A DNA stretch of 63,986 bases, counting the filler, from Dimargaris cristalligena (taxonomy: Eukaryota): NCBI GenBank assembly GCA_003614675.1. It is 3 parts of 3 records of this genome, joined end to end, with 100 filler letters (N's around TTAATTAATTAA, not from the genome) between each part and the next. Parts side by side here need not be neighbours in the genome. Positions count along the whole stretch, not along the records: positions 1 to 21,920 come from ML002650.1; 2 more parts are not named here. The stretch is one strand, 5' to 3'. Below, one piece after another: positions 3,160 to 20,823 of the stretch. Both the position numbers and the translations under genes were made by a program. The notes under the pieces were generated by a model. The model saw nothing but the letters and a program-made list of their open reading frames with translations, was not told where the DNA came from and made no database searches. The first letter of the stretch is position 1; each line of letters opens with the position of its first letter.

Positions 3160-4319
3160 TATTTTTTAATTTTTTTTTTGCACTGCTCTTATTGACTTAT
3201 ACAGCAACATAGGAGAGCCTGTGGGGCTGTGAGTCTGTTGGACCGGTGTGCTGCATGGTATTTGGAATATGGGAGCCACATTATCTGTACTTGTATAGCG
3301 CCATTCGACATTCTCCGCATTACAATTATATTTATTTAACGAACTAAAGCGCCGGCATTTTATTTGTTCTAGGCTTGGGGGTGTTAAATCGGTATTAGTG
3401 AGTTCTAAGGATCATCGGGGGACGTTGTTTGGGACCTAATCAGCTAGCAAAGCCTCGTTAACTCCACGTCCCAATTAGTTTGATGATTTAATATCAGGCG
3501 GTTGCTGTAAATGAGCAAAGAGGAGCTAAATTTAGCCGAGCAAATGGGATGCATTAAAGGAGAATTTTAAACACCGGGATTTATTATACCCACAGTTCCT
3601 GAATCTATTGGCAGAAGGATATTGAAGAAGTAGGGGAGGGAGGGCTTGGTCGGAGTCGTTGCCTATAGTCGCTCTTAATGAGCACGCAATCGGAGAGAGC
3701 TGCATATACAAATAGAGGGTGGTATTACATGTTCTCTCCTCCTCTGGGTTTCTTTGGTAAAACAAGCATCAGCTAGGTAAAGCGACATGGGGAGGTATTC
3801 TTCAGTGGATACGGCTGACGCCATTTAAACATTGGTGGCGACTTCTAACAGTGGCGTCTTCGAGATGGCCTGTCATTTGTTAGAGGTCATCATTGGCAAA
3901 CGCCAACCAAACCCCTTTCCCAATCGAGAGGTTACAGCTTTAATAGCGGTAGGTGGATGATGTAGCGCGGGCTTGCTAAAGCAGCTGAGTAATGGGAGAC
4001 TTGGCCAACCAACGGTCAATTCCGTCGATTAAAGCGGCCCTACCCTGCAGCAATCTTGACAATGACGGTGGATAAATCCGAGAGGCGGCGACACCGAGCC
4101 ACTCAGATAGACGGTATACCATTTAGAGCCGTTTCGCATGATTTCAGCAGTATAGTTTGGTATATTATACTATACTGATTTGTACTTCCCACACACCACC
4201 ACTGTTTTTATGTGCGCGCCAAGATAACTCTCCCTCTCTCTCGCTCGTAATACTGCTTTACTGGATTATTATTTTCCTTTGTAATAACTCTGGCCCAAAC
4301 AGCCCACCCCTCTCTCTTC

Positions 4320-4357
<38 letters not shown>

Positions 4358-4408
4358 CCAGTGCCTTCTTCGACGATTCCCTCACCCTCCACTACTATAC
4401 ACCCCCAT

Positions 4409-5336
4409 ATGGCCCTACGACTTCGTTGTTCCTTCCGCTCCCTGTGTCCCTCGTTACCCGTTTCCAAGTCCACTTCCACCCTTCGCTTGTATACCACTAC
4501 CAATAGCAATAATATTTCCCGCATCCGCTTGCACGACGTTTATTCTTCGCGAGCCCCTCTTCCCATCAGTCGCATTCACTCCACCCCAGTGAATACTCTA
4601 TACATTCCCCTCGCCCCCCAAGCATACCGAACCACCGCCACCATGTCCAGCAACCCAGCGGCCAACCTTTCTAACACCAAGTCCGAGGAGGAATGGCAGG
4701 CTGTTCTCAATCCCGAGCAGTTCCGCGTGCTGCGCCAAAAAGGCACCGAGGCACCAGGCACCGGCGAGTACGAACACCACAAGGCCGAAGGTAAGTTGCG
4801 GTGGCTATTTCCCTGATAGACGATAATGCCCTCTCTCCATATAGTAGTAAAGCGCATTACCCTCCCCTTTCACCCTCCATTGAATCAAACCATACCATAA
4901 CCACCCTTGTAGTCGTTGGGGTGGGTGGCTCCCAAGTGAAAAGCACAATTACTACCTCCTAACTCTATATTAACCATTTACCACGGTACATGCGTGGCGT
5001 TTCCATATATATATATATATATATTTAACAAAAACAATATTTGGCTCGGCCCAACTTTATCCCACTCCACTAGGGGTCTACACCTGTGCCGGCTGTAACG
5101 CCCCGCTCTACAAGTCAGTCACCAAGTTTGATTCCGGCTGTGGCTGGCCGGCTTTCTACGACTCCATCCCCAACGCCATCATCCGCCAGCCCGACAATTC
5201 CGGCGGTCGCCAACGTACCGAAATTATCTGTGCCGCTTGCGGAGGGCATCTAGGCCACGTCTTCAAAGGTGAAGGCTTTAAGGTCCCGACCGACGAACGT
5301 CACTGTGTCAACAGCGTGAGCATCAAATTCCATTAA
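4409..5336 (+). CDS. msrB: Methionine-R-sulfoxide reductase B (Cys-type, Zn-binding), 2 exons
   Basis: Exons 4409-4790 and 5074-5336 (GTAAGT...TAG, phase 1). Motifs: EEEWQAVLNPEQFRVLRQKGTE, CAGC, KFDSGCGWPAF, CAAC-GGHLGHVF, catalytic RHCVNS. Alternative ATG at 4643. Confidence 0.95.
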
Positions 5337-5644: not shown

Positions 5645-6705
5645 AACTGGGCTGGTTAACCTGTGTAGCATGAAGAGGGGAGGGTAAAAATAGAAATGTA
5701 TTGGTGAAATGTGAAGTAGATTAGGAATAGTTCAAAAGTATCAGACAACCAGCCTCCATATAGCAATATTAGGGGATGTTGCCTGGTTTAACCACTCTTA
5801 GTCCATCAAGAGTCCTGAGGATAGGCTTTTAATGGTAGGAGGGGCTTAGGCTTAGCCAAGTAGGCTACTAGCATTAGGTATAGGGTATAATACTAACTAA
5901 TAAAGGCTTCAGTAGCAGGGGTATGTAAGGGATGTGCAGTAGGCATACTTACTAGTTAGTATGGGGGGAGTAAGTGTATATAGTGGTTATTAAGTAAACA
6001 GGGGATAAAAATAAACTAAGGAATCTAACTGGTCCCAATGAGGCCTAGTTATATATATGCAGGGACAACTCCAGAGGGAGGTCCTAAGGGAAGGATACTA
6101 CTGGGACTAAGGTATAGGTAAATAGGCTAACTAAATAGCCACTAGTATCTAGAAGACTCTGATAGTAACTGGAAGAGTCTTTGGATTAACACTTGGGTGA
6201 TTAGTACAAAGAGGCAGAGTCCAGAAGGGGAAGGGTTATATAATATAGGGTGATCCCCTAATACAGAGGATGACCATAGTAAGGTTAATATAGTACTATA
6301 AGGCCTAATAGGGATGGGCACTAAGGTATCTGGATTAAGGAGGATTAGATGGTTTGTCAGTATGAGAATAGGGTAACTTTTAAATATGGTTCCTTTTTTT
6401 ACTAACTACTAAAAATTACTAAAGTCATTAGTCCAAGTATGATACTGTGTCAGTGGATGGTACTATATAAGCTAAATTGTTATGATGGCCAGCTGTGCCC
6501 AAAATATTCAATGTTTGTATAATATAGCTTATAGATAGGAGTTGAGTACAATTTAATGGCACCTTAAGGGACACATCATTTCACTCAGTGGGGGTATAAT
6601 TTCTAAGAGCTACCAATGAGATAATCCTCAGTGAAAGGATTTTGGGTTTTTAGATGGCAAGTATGTGCTTCACTATTAGAAAATATAAATACTTTATTTG
6701 TATTT
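5645..6705. repeat. Degenerate interspersed repeat or TE relic, copy A
   Basis: No CpG in about 1060 bp, TpA-rich, no open frame. 5785-6310 aligns in the same orientation with 11991-12507. Confidence 0.75.
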
Positions 6706-7097: not shown

Positions 7098-8773
7098 TTA
7101 AACGGAATCCAGAGTGGATTGCATGAGTCTGGCATTGGGGGTATTGATCAGAACCTCGGGAATGGGCCCGGCCAAGACACTATCTCCACGCATTGTGCCG
7201 AGCTGATCACCCAGCGCCTTTCTCAATATGTACTTGTCCACAACAAAGGCGACGGTGTTTCTGACTGTGTCATATCGGATTTTGTTACCCAGAATGTCAT
7301 AGGGACAGTGTTCCAAGTCGGGAATGGGACGATTGGCTGCCTCAAGGTCCGACCGCATATTCTCCCATTTTTCGGCGAATTCATCCTTGGTACGGCTGAA
7401 TCCATATTTCTCGGCACACAGTTGGACCTGGCGAACAAAGTCCGCATTCATTTCTGATCCTTGGTAGAAATCGTAATGTAAGGGATATGGCCCATTTTCT
7501 AACATAAGCATGAAGCTCGGAATAATTAGGAACCAGTCGGCCTCCGCCCATGTAGCCCACTGTCTTTTGAGGTACTCGATTAGATTGTCCCAATCCTTCA
7601 CGGAAGCTAGAGTGAAAATCGTGGCAAGTTGGACCACCTCGGTCTGGGGAGCCGTAGACTCAAAACTATCTTCGATACCGTAGGCATTTTCCGCTGCGTC
7701 GAACAAAACCTGCTTTTCCGGTGCCCAGACCTGATTGCATGCCTTCTTGAATGAAGCACTACCGCTGTAGCTCGCCAAGAGATTCTGGAGTTCCAGTACT
7801 AGATCGATATTGCCGTCGGCCGCCAGGCCCAGCATTGGCGACATGACATACCTCTCATAGCGGGTGAGTTCCAAAAGCTCCACCACCTCCCAATGGGTCC
7901 CTGCGATCTGTTCGGCCTTTACATAGGCCTTTATGGCCTCGGTTATTTCAGGTAAGGGCTGTTTCTGGTAGGCATCGGATATTTCAGCCAGTTTGGAATC
8001 AATGAAGTGGTCGTCCTCGTCGTCAGTCGAGTCACCAGAAGGGTAGTAACCGAGGTTGAACTCAAACTTGAAAATATCGATTAGAGGGTCCTTTTCGTCT
8101 TGTGCAAGACTGTCATATTCTAGACTATAGTCGCCAACGCTGGGTAGGAGGCGTTTCATCTAAGCGGGGTTTAAAAACCAAATAGAAATATAAAAAAATG
8201 GCAGTCAAGGGATTGGATTTAGACGAAGGTAGGAAGAGAGTGGCTCTTCAAAATCGCCGCAGTCTATATCGCAGTGGGGCTAGGGTAACCAAATATTTCA
8301 CTAGCATATTCCAGCAACAACGGGCGTGGCAACGGGATTTCGGTGACAGTTGGAAGCTTGGCAATACCACCTAGGTAAACTCGACCCGCAGCTCTCTGAT
8401 GGAAAAACTGTGGTGTACTATTAGCATACATCATATTTCTAACGACATCTCTCTTATACTACCCCCTTACCATCATGTATCGATAAATAGGACTAAACTT
8501 GGTCAGTTTGTTATATCGCTGCGAAACCTTCATTAGCTCAGGGATTGTGTCAATGTCAATATGATCCAAGATTTTTTGAAATGTCTCATTGGCGAGTCGA
8601 TCAAGCGAGCCTCTAGAGGGAGGCGTAGTTTGACCCATGGGATGTGCCTGCAGCTGGATTTCTTGGGTGGATGGAGCTTCTTGATTGTCGAGTGGAGTGA
8701 GCACGGGGCTGGCCGCAACAATGGTCAATTGGACCATCCAGAAAAGCGAGAGGGTAGACACGGTAATCTTCAT
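7098..8773 (-). CDS. Putative secreted protein with an N-terminal F-box-like motif (about 454 aa, 2 exons)
   Basis: Exon 1 8773-8471 (MKITVSTLSLFWMVQLTIVAA-SP signal peptide; SLDRLANETFQKILDHIDIDTIPELMKVSQRYNKL) ends at a phase-0 GTAAGG donor. A phase-0 acceptor (pyrimidine tract, CTTAG at 8160) joins the 353-aa ORF 8159-7098. Confidence 0.7.
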
Positions 8774-11700
8774 GTTTGATGAATACAGGGGCGAATGGGG
8801 CACACTGGTGGTTGAGGGAAATCGAACGATGCCCTGCAGACGCGAGGGAGGGCGGAAGGAAGAAAGTTCTTTGGGAATTACCGCTCTATGAGTCGCTAGA
8901 AAACGGTACAGAATGCAAAGGTACTTGTTCACGAAATCCTCAATGTAAAGATTCAGGGGATGATAAGCTGTGGAGGGACAATTGGGGAGAGGGCAAGCCA
9001 CCCGGTTATATAGGCAACTCCTGGATCTAATTCCTTGCTACAGGCATCAAGAAAATCAATTTAAAACAAGAGCAGTTGAACCAAATCGTCGCATTTTATC
9101 GCTACATGCAATATAACCATGCATTGCTGAGCTCAAAAAAATATTAGAAATTGTGAGGCAGTTTACATTTGAGTGTAGCCCGTACAGAACCTCATCCCTC
9201 ATCTCTTCGACCGCCTATTTCTGAAAGAGACGAGGAGCGATGGTTCCACGGGGCCCCTTTATCATGGGTCAAACTCACTCAAACCATATTACAGACGCTT
9301 CCATCGAATGTTCAACGGTAGGACAGGAATATTATCATATAACCTGGTTGAAATCGAATGCTTTACCATTGGGCAGATATAGTGCCCGGTATGAAACATT
9401 TTTGGAAAAATAGGGTAATGGGGGCGCCGCAATCGCTCATCAACGATTAGATTCAATTAATACTATGGCCAAGCCACTGTTGTATAAGAAATATATATGG
9501 TGACTTATTCGTTGACTGGATCTCTCTTAAACGACTTGGTGAGGCTCAACCCGATGACACCCCCAACACCAACTACGGTGTAAATACTTTACTTGGAAGG
9601 GAGGAAGACTATCTGGGCGCACGGTTAGGGATGTCTACTAAAAGTGGGGTTCCCGCCAGTCTATCTACCATGGGATTTGGTAGTATAGGGTGACCTGGAC
9701 CTGCATAATAATCCGATTTTTATTGTACTAAGTCAAACCTAATAAGAGTGAACGCATATATACAAAAACAGGCAGGAACGGAACCTGCTGCCCTGGACCT
9801 TGAAGGCATTTCATTTCCTGGGGGATTAGGGGTGTAGGATTCTGTAGTTTGGCTGAGGTCCTGGGGACAGAGGTTGGCCATATTATTTGATAGCTTCAGG
9901 GCAATCTTGAAGGGCCAAGGGAAGGAAAGGGGTCCCAAGCCACATAATCCCACATTATCGTCAATAATAATATTGAACAGCTAATACATCATTTATTACT
10001 TGCAGTGTAGGCTAATCGGGCCGGGTTAATACTTACCCTAGGTGGACAGCATCCCTTCAATACGGTGGATATGACCATCCCAGTCGGAAAATAGTTTTGC
10101 AAATGACAAGAGGAGGGCGCAGACGGCCGCCAGCGAATGGTGGTACAGGGGCGTTCCATCATCCAGTAATTTGCGCTTTAGATGTAAGGTGGTCCTTTCC
10201 CAAGGTAAATGGGTGTAATAGTGTCAAAAAAATTCAACGGCAAGAGGACGCAATTATAAGGCTAGCTGGTCAATCTACGGGTATATATTGTTTTTTTAGT
10301 GGAATACCTAAAGTAAAAATTGAATATAGATGTATTGGACTCAAGAGAGATTGTGTTCCACTTTGTTTGAAGGATACTCATGGTTCCAACCACTGCAGAA
10401 ATGGCTAGTGTGGTCTGGTCAGGCCAATAGATGCGTGCAACTATGTGGTCACTTAAAGTACAGCATCAGTTTTGGGCCGAGCTAAATATGCATTGTTTAA
10501 TGACTGGGTTTAAACCTTCTATTATTAAGGCTGTCAGGTTACAGTGATTTCACAGCTGCTGATTTACCAAGGGCGCCAAATGCCGATAATACACACCCGT
10601 AGGCAGGGACTTTAGACCACAAGGTAATCGGGATGCCACCTTGACTAGGGAATTAGTATACATCTAAGCTATTATTGATATTGGCCATAGGTTAAGTTTA
10701 CAACAATTTACAGGCAAGTTACGATAAGACTGTCTTTTACTTCCAGCGGTTTTATATTTTCATAATACCGAGTTTATCATGGCTAGTATTATATCTCATT
10801 TGGCCACTCTTTATATTCGATAATATAATAGACCCGAAAAAACGCTGGTTGAATCCATATACTGTCGCCACTCGATACAGTCGAATTATCAGTGATGATG
10901 GGGTTATTCGCCCGACGATTTGGCACCCTCCTCAAGCCTATCCTCACACCCACACACCTTTCGCCCATAGAAATAATATAACCAACGACTCAAGGACAAT
11001 TCGTTTTATTTATTTTTTTAAAAAATTGTTTATAGGTACACTGAATCCATGGCTAATTGTGCAACCCAAAGGGGACAAGCTAATATGTTGCTGAACGTGG
11101 ATGTTGTACAAAAAAGTATTACTTTTTCATAATCCAAGGTAAGATGGTCCTACTCCCTTCTCAAGGGGCACCCCCTTACTCTCACGCCAGACTCCAGCGA
11201 AACACCCGAGAGTTGATGGCGTTACACTGGAGTTATTCTAGAAGGGTGCCTTAAAAAAAGTCTCTTTGCTCTTGTTGAACACCACCGCTATTCATATATC
11301 CCTCTTCCTCCCTATTGGCGTTCCGGTTATTTTGTAGACAGGGTTAAGATAGCAACTACCCAAGTGGCAGTTTGATTAAATGATGCGGCGTGGGCCAAAT
11401 TGGACACTTCCTACGTCTCCTTGGTCCCCAGTAGTTTCACTTGTTTTTTTTTCACTTCCAGCCATAGATCTCGTGGAGATAAGGCGTTTCATGTCCGTTT
11501 GCGGACGGGCTCGGAACTAGTATATTAGGTAAAATATATAGTTCCTGGAAAACAAATTCCAATGAAGGTAGAATGGCCGATTAGTTTTGTCTCTACAATG
11601 CGTGGTCTGCTGGCTAAATAATGGGACATGTTTTAAAAGTGAAACATAGGGGGCGGTTAGTGGTTGGCGGAAGAAGACTTAGTAGTAAAAATTTGATTGG

Positions 11701-11884
11701 TACAAAACCTCCAGTCGCAAAAAGTGTAGTTGGGGTATTTCCTTATCCGGTGACAAAATCGTCTAACTAATGATTGAAAAATCGGGACTCATGAGTCCCC
11801 AATGTGATTGCTTGAAACAAGAGCAGTACCTCATTAATAATAGTTTACATTTTATTGAAATAGCCAACCCTGTTAGTTTGGTCG

Positions 11885-12711
11885 GGATAGGGGAGGGCCT
11901 TGCCATGCTAATATGTAAGGTTATGGTTATTTATCACTAAAATAATTATTTATATAAAAAAAACTGTTAGCTATGTTCCATTTTCTCTCAGGTTAACCAT
12001 TCTTAGTCTGTTAAAAGTCCTAAAGATAGGCTTCCAACATTAAGGGTAGCTTAAACTTAGCCAAGTGGGTACTAGAGTTAGGTATAGATAAAGGGCACCA
12101 ACTAATAAAGGAATAGTGCAAAGGTTATATAGGGTATACACACTGACTAGTTGGTATGAGGGGGTGAGTATATATAGGACTTATTAGATAAATGAGGGGC
12201 AAGTATAAGCTGAGGTACTAATAGGTCCCAATGGGGACCCATTATATATATATATATATATATAGGAATAGCTCCAGAAGAAATATCCTGAGAGGAATAC
12301 TACTAAGATTATGTTATAGGTAAGTAGACTAGCTAGGGCTTGGTAGTATCTAGAAGACTCTAATGGTAATTAGAAGGGTCTTTAGATTAATACTTGAGTA
12401 AGTAGTGGGAATTTAGGGCCAGGGGCTGGAAAAGATATAATAAATGTTAATCTTTTAGCCACACCCAGAGCCATAGGAATGGTAATATGGCATAACAAGG
12501 CCTAATATAGTTGTGAGCATAACTAGGCAGAATTAAGGTTGGTGAGACAGGCCAACACACATGAACACTAATTTAGTATTAGAGTAGCCAGCCACTAATA
12601 ACTTATATGGGGCCTTATTACATGTAGTAGTTTTTCAATGGTAACTCTGGGTATGGAAATGACCCATTACCTAACTCACATTGAATCACCCTCTGCTAGT
12701 ACCCTTTACTT
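11885..12711. repeat. Degenerate interspersed repeat or TE relic, copy B
   Basis: No CpG in about 830 bp. Shares TAGTATCTAGAAGACTCT, GGTCCCAATG, CTTAGCCAAGT and AGGCCTAATA in colinear order with copy A. Confidence 0.75.
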
Positions 12712-14162
12712 CGATTTTAGAAAGCCTGAATATTTGAGCTCTGATATGGCATTAGAGGAATCAATCGTAACAATAATGCTATAGATTATGGCCCGGGCTA
12801 TGTTATAGGTAGAGGGCCGTGTAAGGATATCAACCTAAGGTCCCTGAATTTGGATATTACTTGGAAGTAGTTATGTGGTTATTGACGTTCCAATCTATCA
12901 AAACTAATGTATGGTTTAGTGGTATAGCATATACATCAGTTTTTTTGGTGGTCTGATGATAACCTATTCTGTATCCAATACCCCTATAATAAAATTGAAT
13001 ATGCCCATTTCATTTGCTGACTTTAACTGAAAGCCCGATATAAATACATATTAGTTCATCGATACATGAAAGGCATTGCCAGGGTTTAGTCGTTTGAAAC
13101 CATTTGATTAGCCCCATAACAATATAATGGTTGAGCCGAGTGGCTGGAGAGCTTCATTCGCCTGCAATGATAGTCCCACCCGCCATTTCGTAGTTGAAAG
13201 GATGTAGGTGTGAGGAATAGGGCTAGTTATCCAACAATAGGTAGCAGGATTTTTGGAGTGTCAACTGGAGGAGCAATGACTAACCTATACTCGACCGCAA
13301 CTCTCCCCTCCCCCTTCCCTTCGTTATTTTCATCTGACTTGAAAGGTTAATAAAAGCAAAAGGATTGCTTTGCTTCTTTGTATTTAAATATGAATTTGAA
13401 TATCGAACACCCTCTTGATACACTCACTCGCCTTGGTATTGCTACTACTATTGTCTTTTTGGGCGAATCCCTAGCCTTCGGTAGGGGAGATGTTCAATCT
13501 AGCTGTATATCATAGCATAAACTTAATGTGACGGGTTTTACAGGTGAAGACCAACTTCCACCGCCTGGCTAGGAATAACACAATCTATTGAACGAGCAAG
13601 GTGATCTACGCAGTGCAACAATCGAATGCCCAGCAGCCCTTTATAATGCCGCTTAGCCCTTGGTATACCCTTTAAACTAACTGATTTTTCTCCATCTATA
13701 TACCCCTGCTGAGTCATTATAATCGATTTTACTCTCGAATCTCTCTCCCTTTTTCCGTTCCCTCCTCATCCCTCACCTTTTCTTGGTACCATCTCGCACC
13801 GGTAATACTTTTGCCCGATATGCCTCGGGAAGATTAACATTGCAGGCAAAATACGGGGGATACCTAAGTATATAAGAGGGACGGTACTGCTCCTCCATTT
13901 ATTATCCATCATCCACACATTCATATGCATTTCCCCTGTCCCCATTACATTATTACTGGCATCGTTCGCACACTATAACCAAATCCACTTTGATTGTATT
14001 AGTATTGATTACGCTACTCTTGCTCCCACCGCCTGCCCATCGCCACTTTTAAATTTATAGTGCGCCAATTATACCTTCTCCTCCGCTGGACCATTTATTC
14101 GCATCTTCATCCACCACCACCACCTGGCCCTTTTGTAGCCCCGTTCCAAAGCCACTTTGACT

Positions 14163-14501
14163 ATGAAGTTCACCACCTCCCGTATTGTGCCCGTCGCGGC
14201 CATCCTGGTTACCATGGCCCTATTCCTTGACCCGGTTGTAGTGGCCGTTAATCCCGCTAACCCCCCTCCCCCACCCAAGACGGGATCCACTAGTAAGAAC
14301 TCCGCTAGCGTCGCTGCAAAGACGGATGCCTCTACTAATAGTCCCACCAAAAATACCAAGCCAGTCAGGTCACCACTCAGCAGAGTGGCTAGAAAATGCA
14401 TGTATCATGCCTGCGGCGCCTTACTCAAAGTTATAGATGCCGGACATAGTCTCTCAGCCAAGCTAGATGGAAGACCCCCATACGTCCCTCCCAAGAATTG
14501 A
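14163..14501 (+). CDS. Small secreted protein (112 aa), Pro/Ser/Thr/Lys-rich
   Basis: MKFTTSRIVPVAAILVTMALFLDPVVVA signal-peptide-like N-terminus. GC-rich coding-like island in AT-rich surroundings. TATA-like TATAAG near 13870. Confidence 0.6.
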   Translation: MKFTTSRIVPVAAILVTMALFLDPVVVAVNPANPPPPPKTGSTSKNSASVAAKTDASTNSPTKNTKPVRSPLSRVARKCMYHACGALLKVIDAGHSLSAKLDGRPPYVPPKN

Positions 14502-14690
14502 TAGACATCATACCATATAGCCTATATACTTTGGTCGGAAAATATACATTTTTGAAAAGCACGGATACGTCCCATTAGAGGAATAGAGGAAGGGTTATAT
14601 ATATATATATATATTTACCCACCCTTCCTGGCTCGGTATTTTTCTTGTGGGTTATTTTTTATTTTATTTTTTGACTATTTTATTTTTCCG

Positions 14691-16246
14691 GATATTAAAT
14701 GATAGATCTATATATCCATGTGAAATGCTACTATACCCACTGACACCAATGATGATTTGAAGTAAGGGTAGATGATATGGGGTAGCAGTGAATTAGAAAA
14801 TAATGTATTTAGAGTCAGTGAGTGGGGAAGTAAGTAGAGGGATAGTTATTGTACCAGTGGTTTGAGGTACCTCCATTTCATGATTAGGGCTGGGGTTAGA
14901 TTCCCTGCTTCCTCCTGGGCTGGTAGGTTCACCAGACATTTGTTTTAAGGGGCCAGTGCCTGGATGGAACATAGAGAACTTGGGAAATGGACCTTCTGCC
15001 TGACAAAATGGGTCAGAGCTACTGTTTGAGTAGGAGCTGGGGTATGGTGGGAAATGTTCCACATGGATTGATCCTAAACTCCCATTATTGAGGTTAGGTA
15101 CTGGAGGAGCCATGGTGGCTATGTACTAATGGGCTGGTTGTAAAGAAAATAGAGTAAATAAAAGGAATAGGAAAAAAAAAACATAAGATTGACTTCCGAT
15201 TGAAGTCTTTGGCTGATACTAGGTAAAATGCTGGGTGAAGTTAAAATAGATATTTATTCTGAATAATAAAAACTTATCTCAAAGATAACTTGCTGATTTA
15301 ATGGCTGACTGGGATACTATATATATGAAAAATATTAGGGTTATAGATTAAACTTATGCTATGACTTTTGGATGTCATCCTCAGATAGACTGGCAACCAT
15401 AAAACCATGAAGGGGAAAACTGGCTGAGTCTTCAAGTTTGAACTTTGTGCAGAAACTGCTATGAAAAAATGGAAAGTGGAAGCACCTTGAATCCACTGAG
15501 GCATTCATAGTAACTGGATAAAGATAAAGAAACTTCAACACTGCCTACTGGGCATCAGTATGAAGAGATATTCCTTCCAACTCGACTGGAAATGTAAAGC
15601 TGATGATGTTGAAATAACTGTTTGGCCAACTGGGCTGGAAGTAGTAGAAATAAGAAAACCAATTGGCCACCTAAATGATGATTTCCAAAAAACTGTCTAA
15701 TGCAGTAGCTGCTTGTTTGACTTGTGCTGGTGTTATGCAATGGAGGGCGGCTAACCAGTTCTTCCCATGGAAGCTGGAAATTGTTCCTGGTCATGGCAGT
15801 ACAATAGTCATACTAGCAGTCCCTAGTGTACCCTAGATAGTGGGGCTTAACTATTGATGCTAATGGATTGAAACAGTGACAGAGAAGAATGGGCTTTTAC
15901 AACTGGTACATACCACAACACCCTCTTTCTAAGAGGGCTCTAGACTTTATTGACTTTTACCACTTGCCATTTAATCACAATCATCAGTTGACTGGATTAG
16001 TATAAGATAGTCTTAGTTGGTTCAGCTAAACTATAGGTGATATGAATACTCCCCTCATTGCCATACCTGCCCAATAACCCACCATCATTACCCTAGAATG
16101 ATGCAATCAGACATTCAATCACACATGTAATATAATACACAGACATGCTCTCTAATGAGAATTACCTTGCTGGTTGGGTGTTGCAACTACTGGTATATCA
16201 GCTTTTGATATTAGTAATTGATTCCAGCCCCTCCATTATCATTATA
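14691..16246. mobile_element. CpG-depleted relic, possibly retroelement-derived
   Basis: Only 3 CpG in about 1.55 kb. On the minus strand near 15910-15935, CCCTCTTAGAAAGAGGG-TGTTGTGG resembles a polypurine tract followed by an LTR start. Short minus-strand ORF 14793-15113 has no recognisable domain. Confidence 0.4.
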
Positions 16247-17388
16247 CGTCTGTGCTTCCTCAACTATTGTTGGTTCACCTTTTACATGAATTTAACAAAC
16301 TTGCAGATATAGTCAGTGTGGAAGGGATTTGGTATGAATAGATGATCCACACAGGTTAAAGTCTGACTAGCCCATCTATGCATAATAAAGTAGATTGGGG
16401 GTAGTAATTGTTACCTAATCAAAATAAGAAATGCTGATAATAAAGATGGAGAGCAATAGGTGCAGAGAAAAGGGGGGAGGCTATAAATCCACTAGATTGA
16501 CCCTATACTCTACTTCCGGTTATTAGAAAGTAGACAAAACTATCACAACTATTTATATTTATGTTTAACATGGTATTATAATGATGGAGAAAAAGAAAAC
16601 ATAATTTTAAAAAAATATGTATGGTGGTTACTAATCTAACAGAGGATATTACAAGTTATCAAGAGGCAGAAGGGAATGTTATCAATGGCGGAATGAAAGA
16701 AGGCAGGATGCGGGAAGGAAAGGAAAGGGAAAATAACTAAACTGTGAAGGTGGAGGGAGGGAGTCAAGGGAAGAATACATGTTGGACATGAAGTTGAAGA
16801 ATAGAAGGGTGCGAAGGGATGAATAAAAGATATTAGATTCGGGGAATGAAGAGTAGTAGCTGGTAGAGGGGAGAAGATGTATATACAGGGGGGAGGACAA
16901 GTATAAAAAAAAGCAACTTATAAATAAATATACATATCACAAAGGGGGGATTGGAAAATCGCGCGGTTCAGGGCGTTAGTTAAACTATGTAAAGAGAAGA
17001 TGGATATAATCTTCGAAATGAGCCGAAATCTAGGTAGGGGGGGGATTAGGCTAGAAGGAGGTAATGAAGATGGAAGCCACACAACCCATGAACCCGGTAT
17101 CCTCTGATTGCTGAATTTAAGTTGAAGATTGACCAAAAAATATATAAAAATAGACCAGTAAAAGGATCGGATGGAATAAATGATTAACAAAGTTATTGAG
17201 ATAATATGAGGCACATTGGCATTGTATGTGGAAAAAGAATAGGAGTATTGCTAAATACTATCCGACTTCTCCCCCACCGCCCCCTACACTAACACACAAA
17301 TACATATATGTCTACATACAACAACTCCCTTCTCCTCCTTTCCAATCCACCACACATACACCCCCGTACACAGTCTGTCGTTGCATTA

Positions 17389-19790
17389 TCAGCCCCGATA
17401 GGCCGGATTCAGTCTGAATAAATGGGGTGCATTAGTCGACGGGGGTTTGTTAACCCTCCCCCCCACCACCATTGTAGGTTGCAGAAGGAACCGGCCGTGG
17501 GGCCCCTTAGAATGGCGATGCAGACAATGGTTCAGGGTATTCAGGGGGGTCCGACCCCGCTGGGTAAACGCCGGTCCCACCACCGGGGATGTTCGGATCC
17601 GATCGTAAATGGCCTGACAGGACAGGGGCTCGGTCGCCGCTGCGAGCACAAAGGCACAGGCATCGGACCAGCTTCGGATCCCCTCGGGAGTGGTTGCAGT
17701 TGCAGTTACAGCTGTTATGGCAGCTGTTGCTGTTGTTGTCGCCATCATCCTTGACCGCCGGACCAGAGCCGGAGTGGGATACGGGGATACCGATCGAGAA
17801 GAGCGGGAGTTAATGGCAGCTAAGGAGGTACCACCTACGGACCGGGTGGGTGACGAAAGGGGTGAGGGAGATCCTGCACCACGCGTGGTAGGCGAGGAAG
17901 AAAAAATGGGGATCGCCAGGGTGGGGGTTAGGGTGGCTGGGCGACGTGGTCGACGACTGGTACGAGGCGAGGAAGACGAAGCAGAGGTAACCACAAAGGG
18001 GGAAGGGGCCATGATCACGGTTTTGCCCGATCGCCGGGTAGGGGTAGGGGTGGTGGTAGTGGTAACAGGGAGGGGCTTGTTCAATACGGGAGCCGCCGGA
18101 ATAGCCGTGACCGCTATCCGGGGATGCGATGATGGTGGTGGCGACCTAGGCAAACCGACCGTTTCGTCGGCTTTCCGTTTCCGAATTAGTACCGGGCTAC
18201 TACCAGCCGGTGCCACAAGTGGTTTAGATCCCGCGACTGGGCTGGTGGATACAATAGCAGCAGCAGTAGCTGAAGGGGCGGGAGAATTTTTAGACCGTTT
18301 AGGGATAAGGTTGCCCTCCCCGTCAACGAGAAGGGGCCGGGGGAACGCTTCGTAGTTCCGGAAATCCCAGACTTTCACTAGCCCGTCGTCGGAGCCGCTA
18401 ACGATTAGACTTTCGGTCATGTCGATTGCATTGACATCACTGTTATGGCCCTTGAGTCTCAGAATATTGCCTTCTTCGCGCTGACGGATGGACCAAACCC
18501 GAATGGTCTGAGGGACAAGAGAGCCAGGGCAATAGGGATGGAATGGGTGATAGAATGAGGGGTTAATAACCTGATAGAGAGTCTATTACAAACAAAAAGA
18601 AATGGCAATGATAGCATTGGTATCTCGGGCTGATCCCTTCCATCCTCCCCCTGAGGAGTTGGAGTAGGAAATGGGGAAGCAATGTATTGTAAAATGATAA
18701 GAGAAGAGAGGAGAACCCCGCAATCATAATACCAACCACCCAATAATCATTATCAGGGACATTAGATTAAGCATGGCTGGAGGGAAGGGGGGGGATGTTT
18801 GAAGGGCGAATATCCCACATAATGAAGGGGTGTGTAAGTTAGGAAAGAGTGAAGGACTGGCGCCTATAGAGAGGGGGAAATTACCTTATCGTAGGATCCG
18901 GTACAGAGCTTGGTGCCATGGGTCTGGAGACAGCGAACCCCGCTAAGGTGGCCGTGAAGCATGTGTGGTTCGACTCGTTGGAAGGGGAACGCGTTGGTGC
19001 TAGGCGAAGAGTTCCGCCGGTTCAGTCGCTGCAGTGGCTTGCGCGAGTTAGTGGGGGACTGGGTCGACTGGTGGTGGTGCCATACCAAGATGGATGAATC
19101 CTCGGCGCCCGATACTAGATACGACTGATCCAATTTTAGCGAAGTGACGGGACTGCAATGGTTTCCAATGTACGAAATCACGGACCGGGTGGCCCGGTCG
19201 CACACCACGACGGAACTTCCGACTCCCACGTAGAGGAAATCGGCATCGAAGTCTACGCTACCAATGACATCGCCGGCCGTGGGTATCCGGGTGGTCGTAC
19301 TTCCAGGCCGACGAGGCGCCACGGGGGCAGTAGCAGTAATGGTAGTAGTAGTAGTAGTAGCTGTCATAATCTGGGGGCCATTGCCTCCTCCTTCGGGTAT
19401 CACCACGTCCTCATCCGGGTAAAGATTAAATATAGACTGACAGGTACCCGTGACGGTGTCCCAGATCTGCACTAGGCCGGAGCCCGTACCCGCGGCCATC
19501 TCGTGTTTTTTGTACCGCAGACAAATGACCTCATCGCCGTGGTCCAAGACGTGTTGGCGCACAAAGTCGGGTTTGCGGGTAGCGAGGGAAGCGAATGCGG
19601 GGCTACCCAGGGTTTTCGATGCATTCCACGGGGGCCGCTGGTCCAAATGTGCCAGAATATCGTCGTTCAAGTGGGCGAGTGCCGGATGATGGCAGTGGCG
19701 GGGGTCGGTCAACCGCCGCCGCGGGGATGTGGTATTAGTAGTAGCAGTAGTAGTAATAGTAGTAATAGTAGTAGAAGAAGGAGAAGAAGA

Positions 19791-19825
<35 letters not shown>

Positions 19826-20750
19826 CAGTAGCAGTAGCAGCAGCAGCAGTAGTAGGGACGGCCAGTTCCCCGCCCTGCAGTTGCCAAACCAACACGGTAC
19901 CGTCCCACGAACCCGAGACCAAGGTAGCTGACATTCGATCATAGTCCAAACAAGATACCGCATTGGTGTGGGCACGCAGGGTGCGTACGCAACGGTTAGA
20001 ATCCAACGACCATACTTTAATGACGTGATCGCGACCACCACTGAACACGAGGCGCCGCACGGGGTCAATGCGGACGGCCAGGACCACGCTGGAGTGACCC
20101 CGGTAGTCGCGGGTTTTATACTGACCCCGGTACCAGTTAGTTTCCAGCCGGTAGTAGTACTGGAACTCCTGGTCCCAATGAATAGCGGCCCGAGTGGCCG
20201 GAGGCAGGGGTTGGTAGCAGTGCAGGTAGTCGGGTAGGCGGAGGTGGAAGCGGTGCGGGGAAGTGGTGGTAGTGGACCGGAGGAGGGGCGAGGGGCCCGT
20301 AATGGTCGTTGAGTTACCGACCACCGCCCCCCCTCCTCTGGTTGGGCGGTGGCCAGCGGTTGACGTGGAGGCGGCGGAAACCTCTCCTATTTCCTCGCTC
20401 ACCTCTTTTTTTCCACCTTCGGAAAGAACGGTAGTGGTAGTAGTCATTGGTCGGGGCCGGATAAACCCGTCACGCGCTACGGTAGACTGGGGGTAGCGCT
20501 CCTTGACCAGCGGCAGGAAGCCGTGCCGGCGACACTGGTGGTACCACAAGGCCTGTTCGCCACACAGGATCCGCCAGCGGCGACAGGTCTGGGAAGCGGC
20601 CACGAGGGACTGGACCGGGAGCTCAGACAGGCACCGGAAAGTGATATGTAAGGGGAGCTTGGACAGGATATCCTGCTGGGGCGACCTGGCGGCCGCTGCC
20701 GCCGTCGGGGCCACCACGGGTTTGCTGAAATAAGGGTGTTTGCCCTTCAT
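17389..20750 (-). CDS. F-box/WD40-repeat protein with C-terminal HARE-HTH (ASXL-like winged-helix) domain, about 994 aa, 2 exons
   Basis: Exons 20750-18885 and 18507-17389 (GTAATT...CAG, phase 0; the junction GSYDK|TIRVWS restores a WD40 repeat). F-box DILSKLPLHITFRCLSELPVQSLVAASQTCRRWRILC. Multiple GH..WD-type repeats. C-terminal RSWSDACAFVLAAATEPLSCQAIYDRI...GRTPLNTLNHCLHRHSKG. Confidence 0.9.
19734..19855. repeat. Coding trinucleotide repeat tract (AGT/AGC/AGA)n encoding poly-Thr/Ala/Ser
   Basis: GTAGTAGTA.../GCAGCA/GAAGAA runs. On the minus strand these encode TTAAAATATATTTTTTTTTTSSSSPSSTTITT, an insertion in the WD40 region. Confidence 0.9.
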
Positions 20751-20823
20751 GTCGGAGCACAAGTGGGAAGTAAGTAGTAAAGAGGTGTGTACACAGCTAA
20801 AGGGGAACGGGGCCGTTTACCCG

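Follow-up and report, generated by a model that had tools for sequence, protein, structure and literature searches.

What is encoded at positions 7098-8773 of the Dimargaris cristalligena window? The window is the whole stretch of DNA analysed here (63,986 nucleotides of assembly GCA_003614675.1, filler included). An earlier note, made from the sequence alone, had read on the minus strand of this interval a signal peptide, a short linker, an F-box-like motif and a 353-residue region of no recognisable family, and had proposed an effector that enters another cell and hijacks the Skp1–Cul1–F-box (SCF) ubiquitin ligases of its host. We find that observation confirmed and its interpretation partly supported: the locus holds an intact two-exon gene of a family, as yet unpublished, whose members are credible effector candidates of haustorial mycoparasites. 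Its product of 454 amino acids (454 codons plus a TAA stop) is letter for letter that of BJ085DRAFT_27249 (RKP36461.1, here P0011), a public 454-aa protein of D. cristalligena. The features of the gene are as follows.

7098..8773, minus strand: whole coding region, two exons and one intron; equal to P0011; H4R33_005217 (P0001) is the same gene with another donor
8471..8773, minus strand: exon 1, residues 1-101; translation equal to P0011 residues 1-101; holds the putative signal peptide, the linker and the F-box-like module
8160..8470, minus strand: predicted intron, 311 nt, phase 0, GTAAGG...TTAG; identical to the Joint Genome Institute (JGI) model and collinear with the paralogues P0003 and P0004
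7098..8159, minus strand: exon 2, residues 102-454, with the TAA stop at 7098-7100; equal to P0011 residues 102-454
8711..8773, minus strand: signal-peptide-like N-terminus, residues 1-21; n-region MK, uncharged hydrophobic core, VAA↓SP at -3/-1
8603..8710, minus strand: linker rich in Pro, Gln and Thr, residues 22-57; SPVLTPLDNQ hardly varies between the Dimargaris paralogues
8480..8602, minus strand: F-box-like module, residues 58-98; sub-threshold match to PF00646; A61 where 9 of 10 relatives have P; N62-E-T sequon
7101..8123, minus strand: helical C-terminal domain, residues 114-454; the AlphaFold2 (AF2) model has about 18 helices and a single small beta hairpin
7305..7418, minus strand: invariant cysteine pair, C349 (7416-7418) and C386 (7305-7307); Cys in 10 of 10 family members; putative disulfide

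The open reading frame (ORF) at 8459-8773 on the minus strand begins its translation with MKITVSTLSLFWMVQLTIVAASP, and no in-frame ATG was found upstream of M1 back to the preceding stop. The predicted intron opens at 8470 with a GTAAGG donor and closes at 8160 with a TTAG acceptor, which has a branch-like TTGAC 49 nt on its 5' side; stops are met when the 311 nt are read through, and the 353-aa ORF at 7098-8159 (minus strand) joins in phase 0. The exons joined in this way are identical to P0011, so that the splice put forward in the earlier note turns out to be the public model of the other D. cristalligena annotation. The paralogues P0003 and P0004 read ...YRNKM-MKLRLP... at the splice position and are collinear with the gene. 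The intron is thus a predicted one, drawn from annotation and homology.

The NCBI annotation of the same species departs from this model. Its H4R33_005217 (P0001, 435 aa) is 100% identical over the 353-aa ORF and falls into one 90% cluster with P0011, and it joins ...IPELMK to MKRLL via a GTTTCG donor at 8527, dropping 19 residues relative to P0011. A second NCBI model, P0002, is without any of the F-box-like module, which its counterpart P0012 (451 aa) does have. Judged by these comparisons, both H4R33 models look mis-spliced (across 8471-8527, minus strand, for P0001). A shorter intron for the gene itself, from 8470 to about 8409 (GTAAGG...ACAG), was rejected: it runs in frame into a stop at 8264-8266, and the paralogues have no residues there.

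How far does the family extend? An exhaustive HMMER profile search of 1,835,955,588 representative proteins returned six proteins at E<=0.001—two from Dimargaris and four from Tieghemiomyces parasiticus, the latter at E 7.7e-41 to 1.1e-20—and no relative outside these two genera, both of the Dimargaritales. Cluster look-up added P0009, P0010, P0011 and P0012, and the family as aligned has 10 members. Of 2277 candidates in a word-index search with the C-terminal ORF, four passed E<=0.001, and D. cristalligena is the source of each; a like search with the N-terminal 110 residues of P0003 gave three proteins among 75 candidates, all within the family. D. cristalligena has three loci across its two annotations; T. 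parasiticus has six proteins (P0005 to P0010) in four divergent groups, and proteins of the two genera share 20-30% identity. In the homologues of both genera the signal peptide, the F-box-like module and the C-terminal domain recur jointly, which makes the architecture more than a matter of chance.

Two pairs of the T. parasiticus proteins are 90-91% identical and may be alleles; in the published account of these genomes, 66% of BUSCO markers are duplicated in the assembly of this species, and a non-haploid state is suspected for the order (PMC9866270). Two of the three D. cristalligena loci are identical or near-identical between the two annotations. P0003 (BJ085DRAFT) and P0004 (H4R33), by contrast, are only 76% identical; they may represent separate paralogues, alleles that have diverged, or one locus that evolves fast. 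The biotrophic or mycoparasitic lifestyle supposed in the earlier note holds for D. cristalligena: the same account describes Dimargaris and Tieghemiomyces alike as haustorial mycoparasites, and the Dimargaritales as parasites of Mucoromycota and Ascomycota that use an appressorium and a haustorium (PMC9866270).

Could the locus instead be an artefact, its motif having arisen by chance in a gene that is decaying or wrongly modelled, or its sequence being contamination from a host fungus? The annotations behind P0001 and P0011 do disagree on the donor, and the intron is a predicted one; against this, the exons are open and identical in proteins of two D. cristalligena annotations, the architecture is kept in 10 proteins of two genera, and the C-terminal domain is predicted with confidence by AF2. 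Dimargaritales assemblies derive from dual cultures that include the host, and contamination is a recognised issue for them (PMC9866270). No host homologue appears among the 1.84 billion representatives, however, and the lack of relatives in other organisms makes host contamination unlikely. We consider an artefact of either kind very improbable.

Is the product secreted? Signal peptides were judged with a rule-based script that scores n-region charge, an uncharged hydrophobic core and small residues at -3 and -1, and that is a heuristic. The N-terminus of the gene product is signal-peptide-like, in line with the earlier note. Residues 3-28 are without charge, and the Kyte-Doolittle mean of 1.75 over residues 3-21 is the highest of any 19-residue window in the protein. 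By the same script, eight of the 10 family members begin in a signal-peptide-like manner, and these eight carry three mutually unrelated types of N-terminal sequence.

Dimargaris paralogues: MKI(T/V/I)(V/I)STLS..., cleavage motif (V/I)(A/M)A↓SP
P0006 and P0010: MRIHLAF(T/I)GLLAAGTAVQA, cleavage motif VQA↓ST
P0007 and P0008: MLAR(L/F)ALVSLLAG..., cleavage motif VFA↓RP

The remaining two are P0005, which sets in just ahead of the F-box-like module and lacks a hydrophobic N-terminus, and P0009, which has only a short MLLSPALAQSP. Because these two proteins share 91% identity and only the start of the model sets them apart, their N-termini may belong to 5'-truncated or mis-annotated models. The script found neither an ER-retention end (endoplasmic reticulum; KDEL/HDEL type) nor a hydrophobic C-terminus. 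Signal peptide and linker together are the best-conserved part among the four Dimargaris paralogues, at 76-77% identity vs. 46-59% for the other parts, and we count this high N-terminal and low remaining identity as a putatively effector-like pattern.

The cysteines give a second line of evidence. In the 10-sequence alignment, columns 440 and 480 are Cys in all 10 members. Columns 238 and 278 are both Cys in seven members and both replaced in P0011, P0007 and P0008, a distribution that needs two independent co-losses; columns 64 and 100 are both Cys in six of six Tieghemiomyces members and in none of the four from Dimargaris. All three pairs are thus jointly Cys or jointly non-Cys in every member. 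This is the pattern of disulfide partners, and it suggests that the proteins form disulfides and fold in the ER, within the secretory pathway.

These same data bear on the possibility of an endogenous role, in which the parasite would use the protein as a lineage-specific SCF substrate receptor together with its own Skp1, and the hydrophobic N-terminal stretch would be a membrane anchor or go unused. Almost all known eukaryotic F-box proteins do act inside the cell that makes them. The long uncharged run of the Dimargaris paralogues makes a signal anchor conceivable, but with K2 ahead of the run and D and E behind it, the positive-inside rule predicts an N-in, C-out orientation, so that even an uncleaved anchor would place the F-box in the lumen. 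Nor do the cores of the Tieghemiomyces proteins suit an anchor: that of P0007 has 13 residues without charge, too short for a membrane span. The missing hydrophobic N-terminus of P0005 and the short one of P0009 would fit an endogenous protein, although these N-termini are possibly mis-annotated, and the paired cysteines indicate oxidative folding. Taken together, an endogenous role seems improbable to us.

Does the module after the linker have the fold of an F-box? An F-box typically opens with a conserved L-P and shows the hydrophobic pattern of a three-helix fold. Residues 58-98, where the earlier note had placed its F-box-like motif, do match PF00646, at E 0.012 (16 bits) when exon 1 is searched and at E 0.0047 (17.2 bits) for a 66-aa piece; the cut-off is 20.5 bits. 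When the corresponding segments of eight members were scanned against Pfam, PF00646 was matched by three, F-box_4 by one (E 0.13) and F-box-like by one (E 0.14), with single matches also to PAX, Death_2 and DUF2138. A profile of the eight segments had four matches at E<=10 among PDB sequences, two of them F-box proteins and two phage tail tube proteins. FBXL2 (6o60_C; E 0.95, gapless over 35 columns) and Cdc4 (1nex_B; E 1.5) were both aligned on their F-boxes and in register, at non-significant scores. In the ESM Atlas, the top feature neighbour of residues 46-112 is an F-box cluster (0.93), and 10 of 10 structure rows are F-box clusters with template modelling (TM) scores by query of 0.62-0.71, which mean little for so short a stretch; the Atlas model of the whole protein has a predicted local distance difference test (pLDDT) of 0.42. 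UniRef labels P0003, P0011 and P0012 “F-box domain-containing protein.” Where the F-box begins, P, E and I are each retained by nine of the 10 aligned members, as is the F-L that precedes VS, and at an inter-genus identity of 20-30% this suggests selection on exactly those positions. The F-box evidence is convergent but weak. We think that the module probably has the F-box fold; that it binds Skp1 is possible, though we are more doubtful of this step.

Several results weigh against an F-box that docks on Skp1. Every F-box signal lies below significance, and all of the Pfam matches fall under the 20.5-bit cut-off; the motif stands at the place given in the earlier note, and we do not class the protein as a proven member of the F-box family. 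Among eight full-length members an F-box family is matched at E<=1 in one only (P0011, E 0.11) and in none of the other seven, and P0001 to P0004 match no F-box family in Pfam at that threshold. Searches against the PDB found no F-box either with the whole-family profile (three matches, all SdhE/YgfY) or in a phmmer run with the 52-aa module of the gene (seven matches at E<=10), and two hhalign runs of the family against the window's own canonical F-box protein gave no relevant alignment (probability 0.3 and 0.2). The AF2 model built from the 10-sequence alignment places helices at residues 62-71, 77-85 and 96-102, at a pLDDT below 50. Identity between the four Dimargaris paralogues is lowest in the module (46%, vs. 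59% for the C-terminal domain), which is not what one would expect of a surface that binds a conserved protein. This gene alone has A61 for the P kept by the nine other members—the LA in place of the usual LP that the earlier note had pointed out as a weakness. Directly after it, at residues 62-64 (8588-8596, minus strand), stands an N-E-T sequon found in this paralogue only, the other Dimargaris paralogues having I/S/R-E-T; if glycosylated, it could block the contact with Skp1. In Tieghemiomyces, the residue before the P is a Cys, apparently paired with a Cys after helix 3.

Much of this would be expected if the protein is secreted and has no SCF role at all, acting in the parasite's wall, at the haustorial interface or in the medium. 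The module would then be a helical subdomain that has diverged, perhaps from an F-box, and has lost any binding to Skp1, and the C-terminal domain would be the functional part, for example by binding a component of the host's surface or wall. The secretory evidence from N-termini and cysteine pairs serves this explanation equally, and conserved disulfides fit a protein that stays in an oxidising compartment. The sub-threshold F-box signals, the several tests that gave none, the low conservation of the module, the putative disulfide that would staple it in the six Tieghemiomyces members and, in this gene, the loss of the conserved P with a sequon at that spot all lean the same way. On the other side, F-box signature residues are kept in 9 of 10 members at only 20-30% identity between the genera, and independent weak signals all point, in register, to F-box families. 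To our knowledge the F-box fold has no other function. Nor does the C-terminal domain match any carbohydrate-binding or enzyme family in Pfam. We hold a secreted protein without SCF function to be the main rival reading and a serious possibility, short of a probable one.

A side observation concerns the module's surroundings. A conserved stretch follows it (about 8045-8159 and 8471-8500, minus strand; residues ~92-140), with the consensus EYDxLSxxEK...FEFDL. Positions 85-150 of the whole-family profile align in the PDB with YgfY/SdhE flavinylation factors at E 0.097-0.64, which is not significant, and an SdhE/Sdh5 identity was rejected: there is no Pfam Sdh5 match at E<=1 and no conserved G or E opposite the RRGMRE of SdhE, which we take to be its catalytic motif.

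What could the rest of the protein do? The 353-aa part has no recognised family, as the earlier note had stated; Pfam at E<=1 gave only a sub-threshold DUF4144, and the protein as a whole is acidic (D+E 68 vs. K+R 40). With the 10-sequence alignment, AF2 reached a mean pLDDT of 68 and a predicted TM score (pTM) of 0.69, most 10-residue blocks after residue 150 scoring 65-94; low blocks lie at residues 141-150 (about 41) and 421-430 (50). A model from the four Dimargaris sequences only had a mean pLDDT of 40 and was unusable. Foldseek found no significant solved fold in the PDB for the AF2 model (best E 0.33). VIA-align over 48,161 chains gave a best Z of 5.4, for AhpD (89 residues, root-mean-square deviation 5.1), and on Foldseek's own list a best Z of 5.3, for designed helical repeats, PPR and TPR-like chains. 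All of these fold scores lie within the range common for helical proteins, and we assign no fold. The ESM Atlas feature neighbours of the domain are ankyrin clusters at 0.77-0.82, under the 0.9 bar and so a lead only; no Ank family is matched at E<=1 in any member, and hhalign against the window's ankyrin protein gave a probability of 0.07. Going by these models, the C-terminal part would be a helical, repeat-like, protein-binding domain without an assigned family, and a domain of that sort would be the kind of partner usual in F-box proteins. The six Tieghemiomyces members have an insert of ~50-75 residues in this domain (columns ~313-400), rich in acidic residues, Gly, Ser and Thr, which none of the four Dimargaris members has, and P0007 and P0008 end in long acidic tails.

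How might these parts work together? The leading mechanism is a secreted F-box mimic that hijacks the SCF ligase of the host, and we advance it tentatively, as a plausible account that falls somewhat short of probable. The protein would enter the ER by way of a signal peptide cleaved after residue 21, fold there with one to three disulfides, and leave the parasite as an acidic protein in soluble form, presumably at the haustorium. Taken up by the host hypha, it would bind the host's Skp1 through the three-helix F-box-like module (about residues 58-98), in imitation of the host's F-box proteins, and its helical C-terminal domain of 340 residues would recruit host proteins to SCF so that they are ubiquitinated. 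Secretion and its site, entry into the host, the binding of Skp1 and the existence of any substrate are all steps that we infer. No Skp1 gene was found among the 38 ORFs of the window that were scanned. The fullest form of the idea—that Dimargaritales deliver private, disulfide-stabilised F-box mimics into their fungal hosts, the module docking on host Skp1 and a new helical domain selecting the targets—we regard as rather unlikely as it stands. If true, it would give Zoopagomycota a first defined effector class and would be a first example of one fungus hijacking the ubiquitin ligase of another.

With its putative secretion signal, its F-box-like module and a range of two haustorial mycoparasite genera, the family gives a concrete handle on how one fungus manipulates another from within. 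If SCF mimicry is correct, a strategy of bacteria, viruses and a gall midge would extend to parasitism between fungi, and the C-terminal domain would be a new substrate-binding fold. If the F-box reading is wrong, there is still a lineage-specific family of apparently secreted proteins with a confident new helical domain, and a warning that F-box-like motifs in secretomes need binding data.

What surrounds the gene? Four features flank it.

5788..6310, plus strand: degenerate dispersed repeat, copy A, downstream of the gene
11993..12507, plus strand: copy B of the same repeat, upstream of the gene, in direct orientation and ~70% identical to copy A
4142-5336, plus strand: split MsrB/SelR (methionine sulfoxide reductase B) gene of at least two exons, 4142-4816 and 4974-5336
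17389-20816, minus strand: canonical F-box/WD40 gene H4R33_005218 (P0014, 991 aa); PF12937 at E 1.8e-09, PF00646 at 2.7e-08

The gene thus does sit between degenerate repeats, as the earlier note had it. The two copies appear to differ largely by G/A and C/T changes, and each has a (TA)n run, of differing length. From 5.3 to 17.4 kb no ORF but this gene matches a family; among 16 other ORFs of at least 75 aa that were scanned, a SelR exon alone was matched. Per 1-kb bin, G+C in this interval is 0.36-0.45, and 0.47-0.50 in the two bins that hold the gene; this isolated position in a stretch of mostly lower G+C we likewise count as putatively effector-like. Positions 8800-17400 form ~8.5 kb of lower G+C (0.37-0.45), in which 13 scanned ORFs of at least 75 aa match no Pfam family at E<=0.01, and could be decayed mobile elements. 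A tblastn search of the window with eight family proteins found no second copy or pseudogene. The MsrB/SelR gene lies ~1.8 kb downstream and is convergent. H4R33_005218, the next annotated gene, has many WD40 matches and long Thr and Ser runs, and consists of two large ORFs ~280 nt apart, presumably separated by an intron; a word-index search for relatives of its product found only its own record. A carbonic anhydrase is also encoded in the window.

How does the family compare with known systems? In the literature searched we found no validated secreted F-box effector of a fungus, no link between Dimargaris and the F-box, and no description of effector proteins of zygomycete mycoparasites; titles and abstracts on Dimargaris and secretomes hold nothing on this family. 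Bearing on the earlier note's remark that F-box effectors are barely described in fungi, one candidate is listed: NLS_30765 of the mycorrhizal fungus Rhizophagus clarus, a predicted secreted effector candidate with an F-box-like domain (PF12937, 2.8e-07; PMC4746824). Like the Dimargaris family it is fungal, a secreted candidate and F-box-like, with interference with SCF proposed from computation alone in that report (PMC4746824); it differs in its significant Pfam match and its plant host, and is unrelated in sequence.

The bacterial effectors RipG/GALA, AnkB (Legionella), VirF (Agrobacterium) and the Orientia Anks follow the same proposed logic, in which a parasite's F-box joins host Skp1/Cul1 and redirects ubiquitination; RipG7 of the Ralstonia RipG/GALA group, for one, is reported to bind Arabidopsis SKP1-like proteins (PMC4617103). 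They differ in being injected by type III or type IV systems, without an ER signal peptide, and in having leucine-rich repeat (LRR) or ankyrin partner domains, and the HMMER search showed no sequence relation between them and the Dimargaris family. The canonical H4R33_005218 protein of the window shares the order of an N-terminal F-box and a following protein-binding domain; it differs in its strong Pfam scores, its lack of a hydrophobic N-terminus and, by hhalign, the absence of an F-box alignment with the family.

Among animals, the SSGP-71 proteins of the Hessian fly are described as a family with F-box and LRR domains that interacts with host Skp proteins and is regarded there as mimicking the host's F-box proteins (PMC4617103, after Zhao et al. 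2015). Their cyclin-like F-box is recognisable, they carry LRRs and their binding to Skp has been demonstrated, whereas the Dimargaris family has a sub-threshold F-box, a helical C-terminal domain and a fungal host, and is known from sequence. The SSGP-71 proteins, too, are reported to be secreted and to carry a signal peptide. Both are multigene families of a eukaryotic parasite, in which an F-box or F-box-like module at the N-terminus is followed by a putative target-binding domain.

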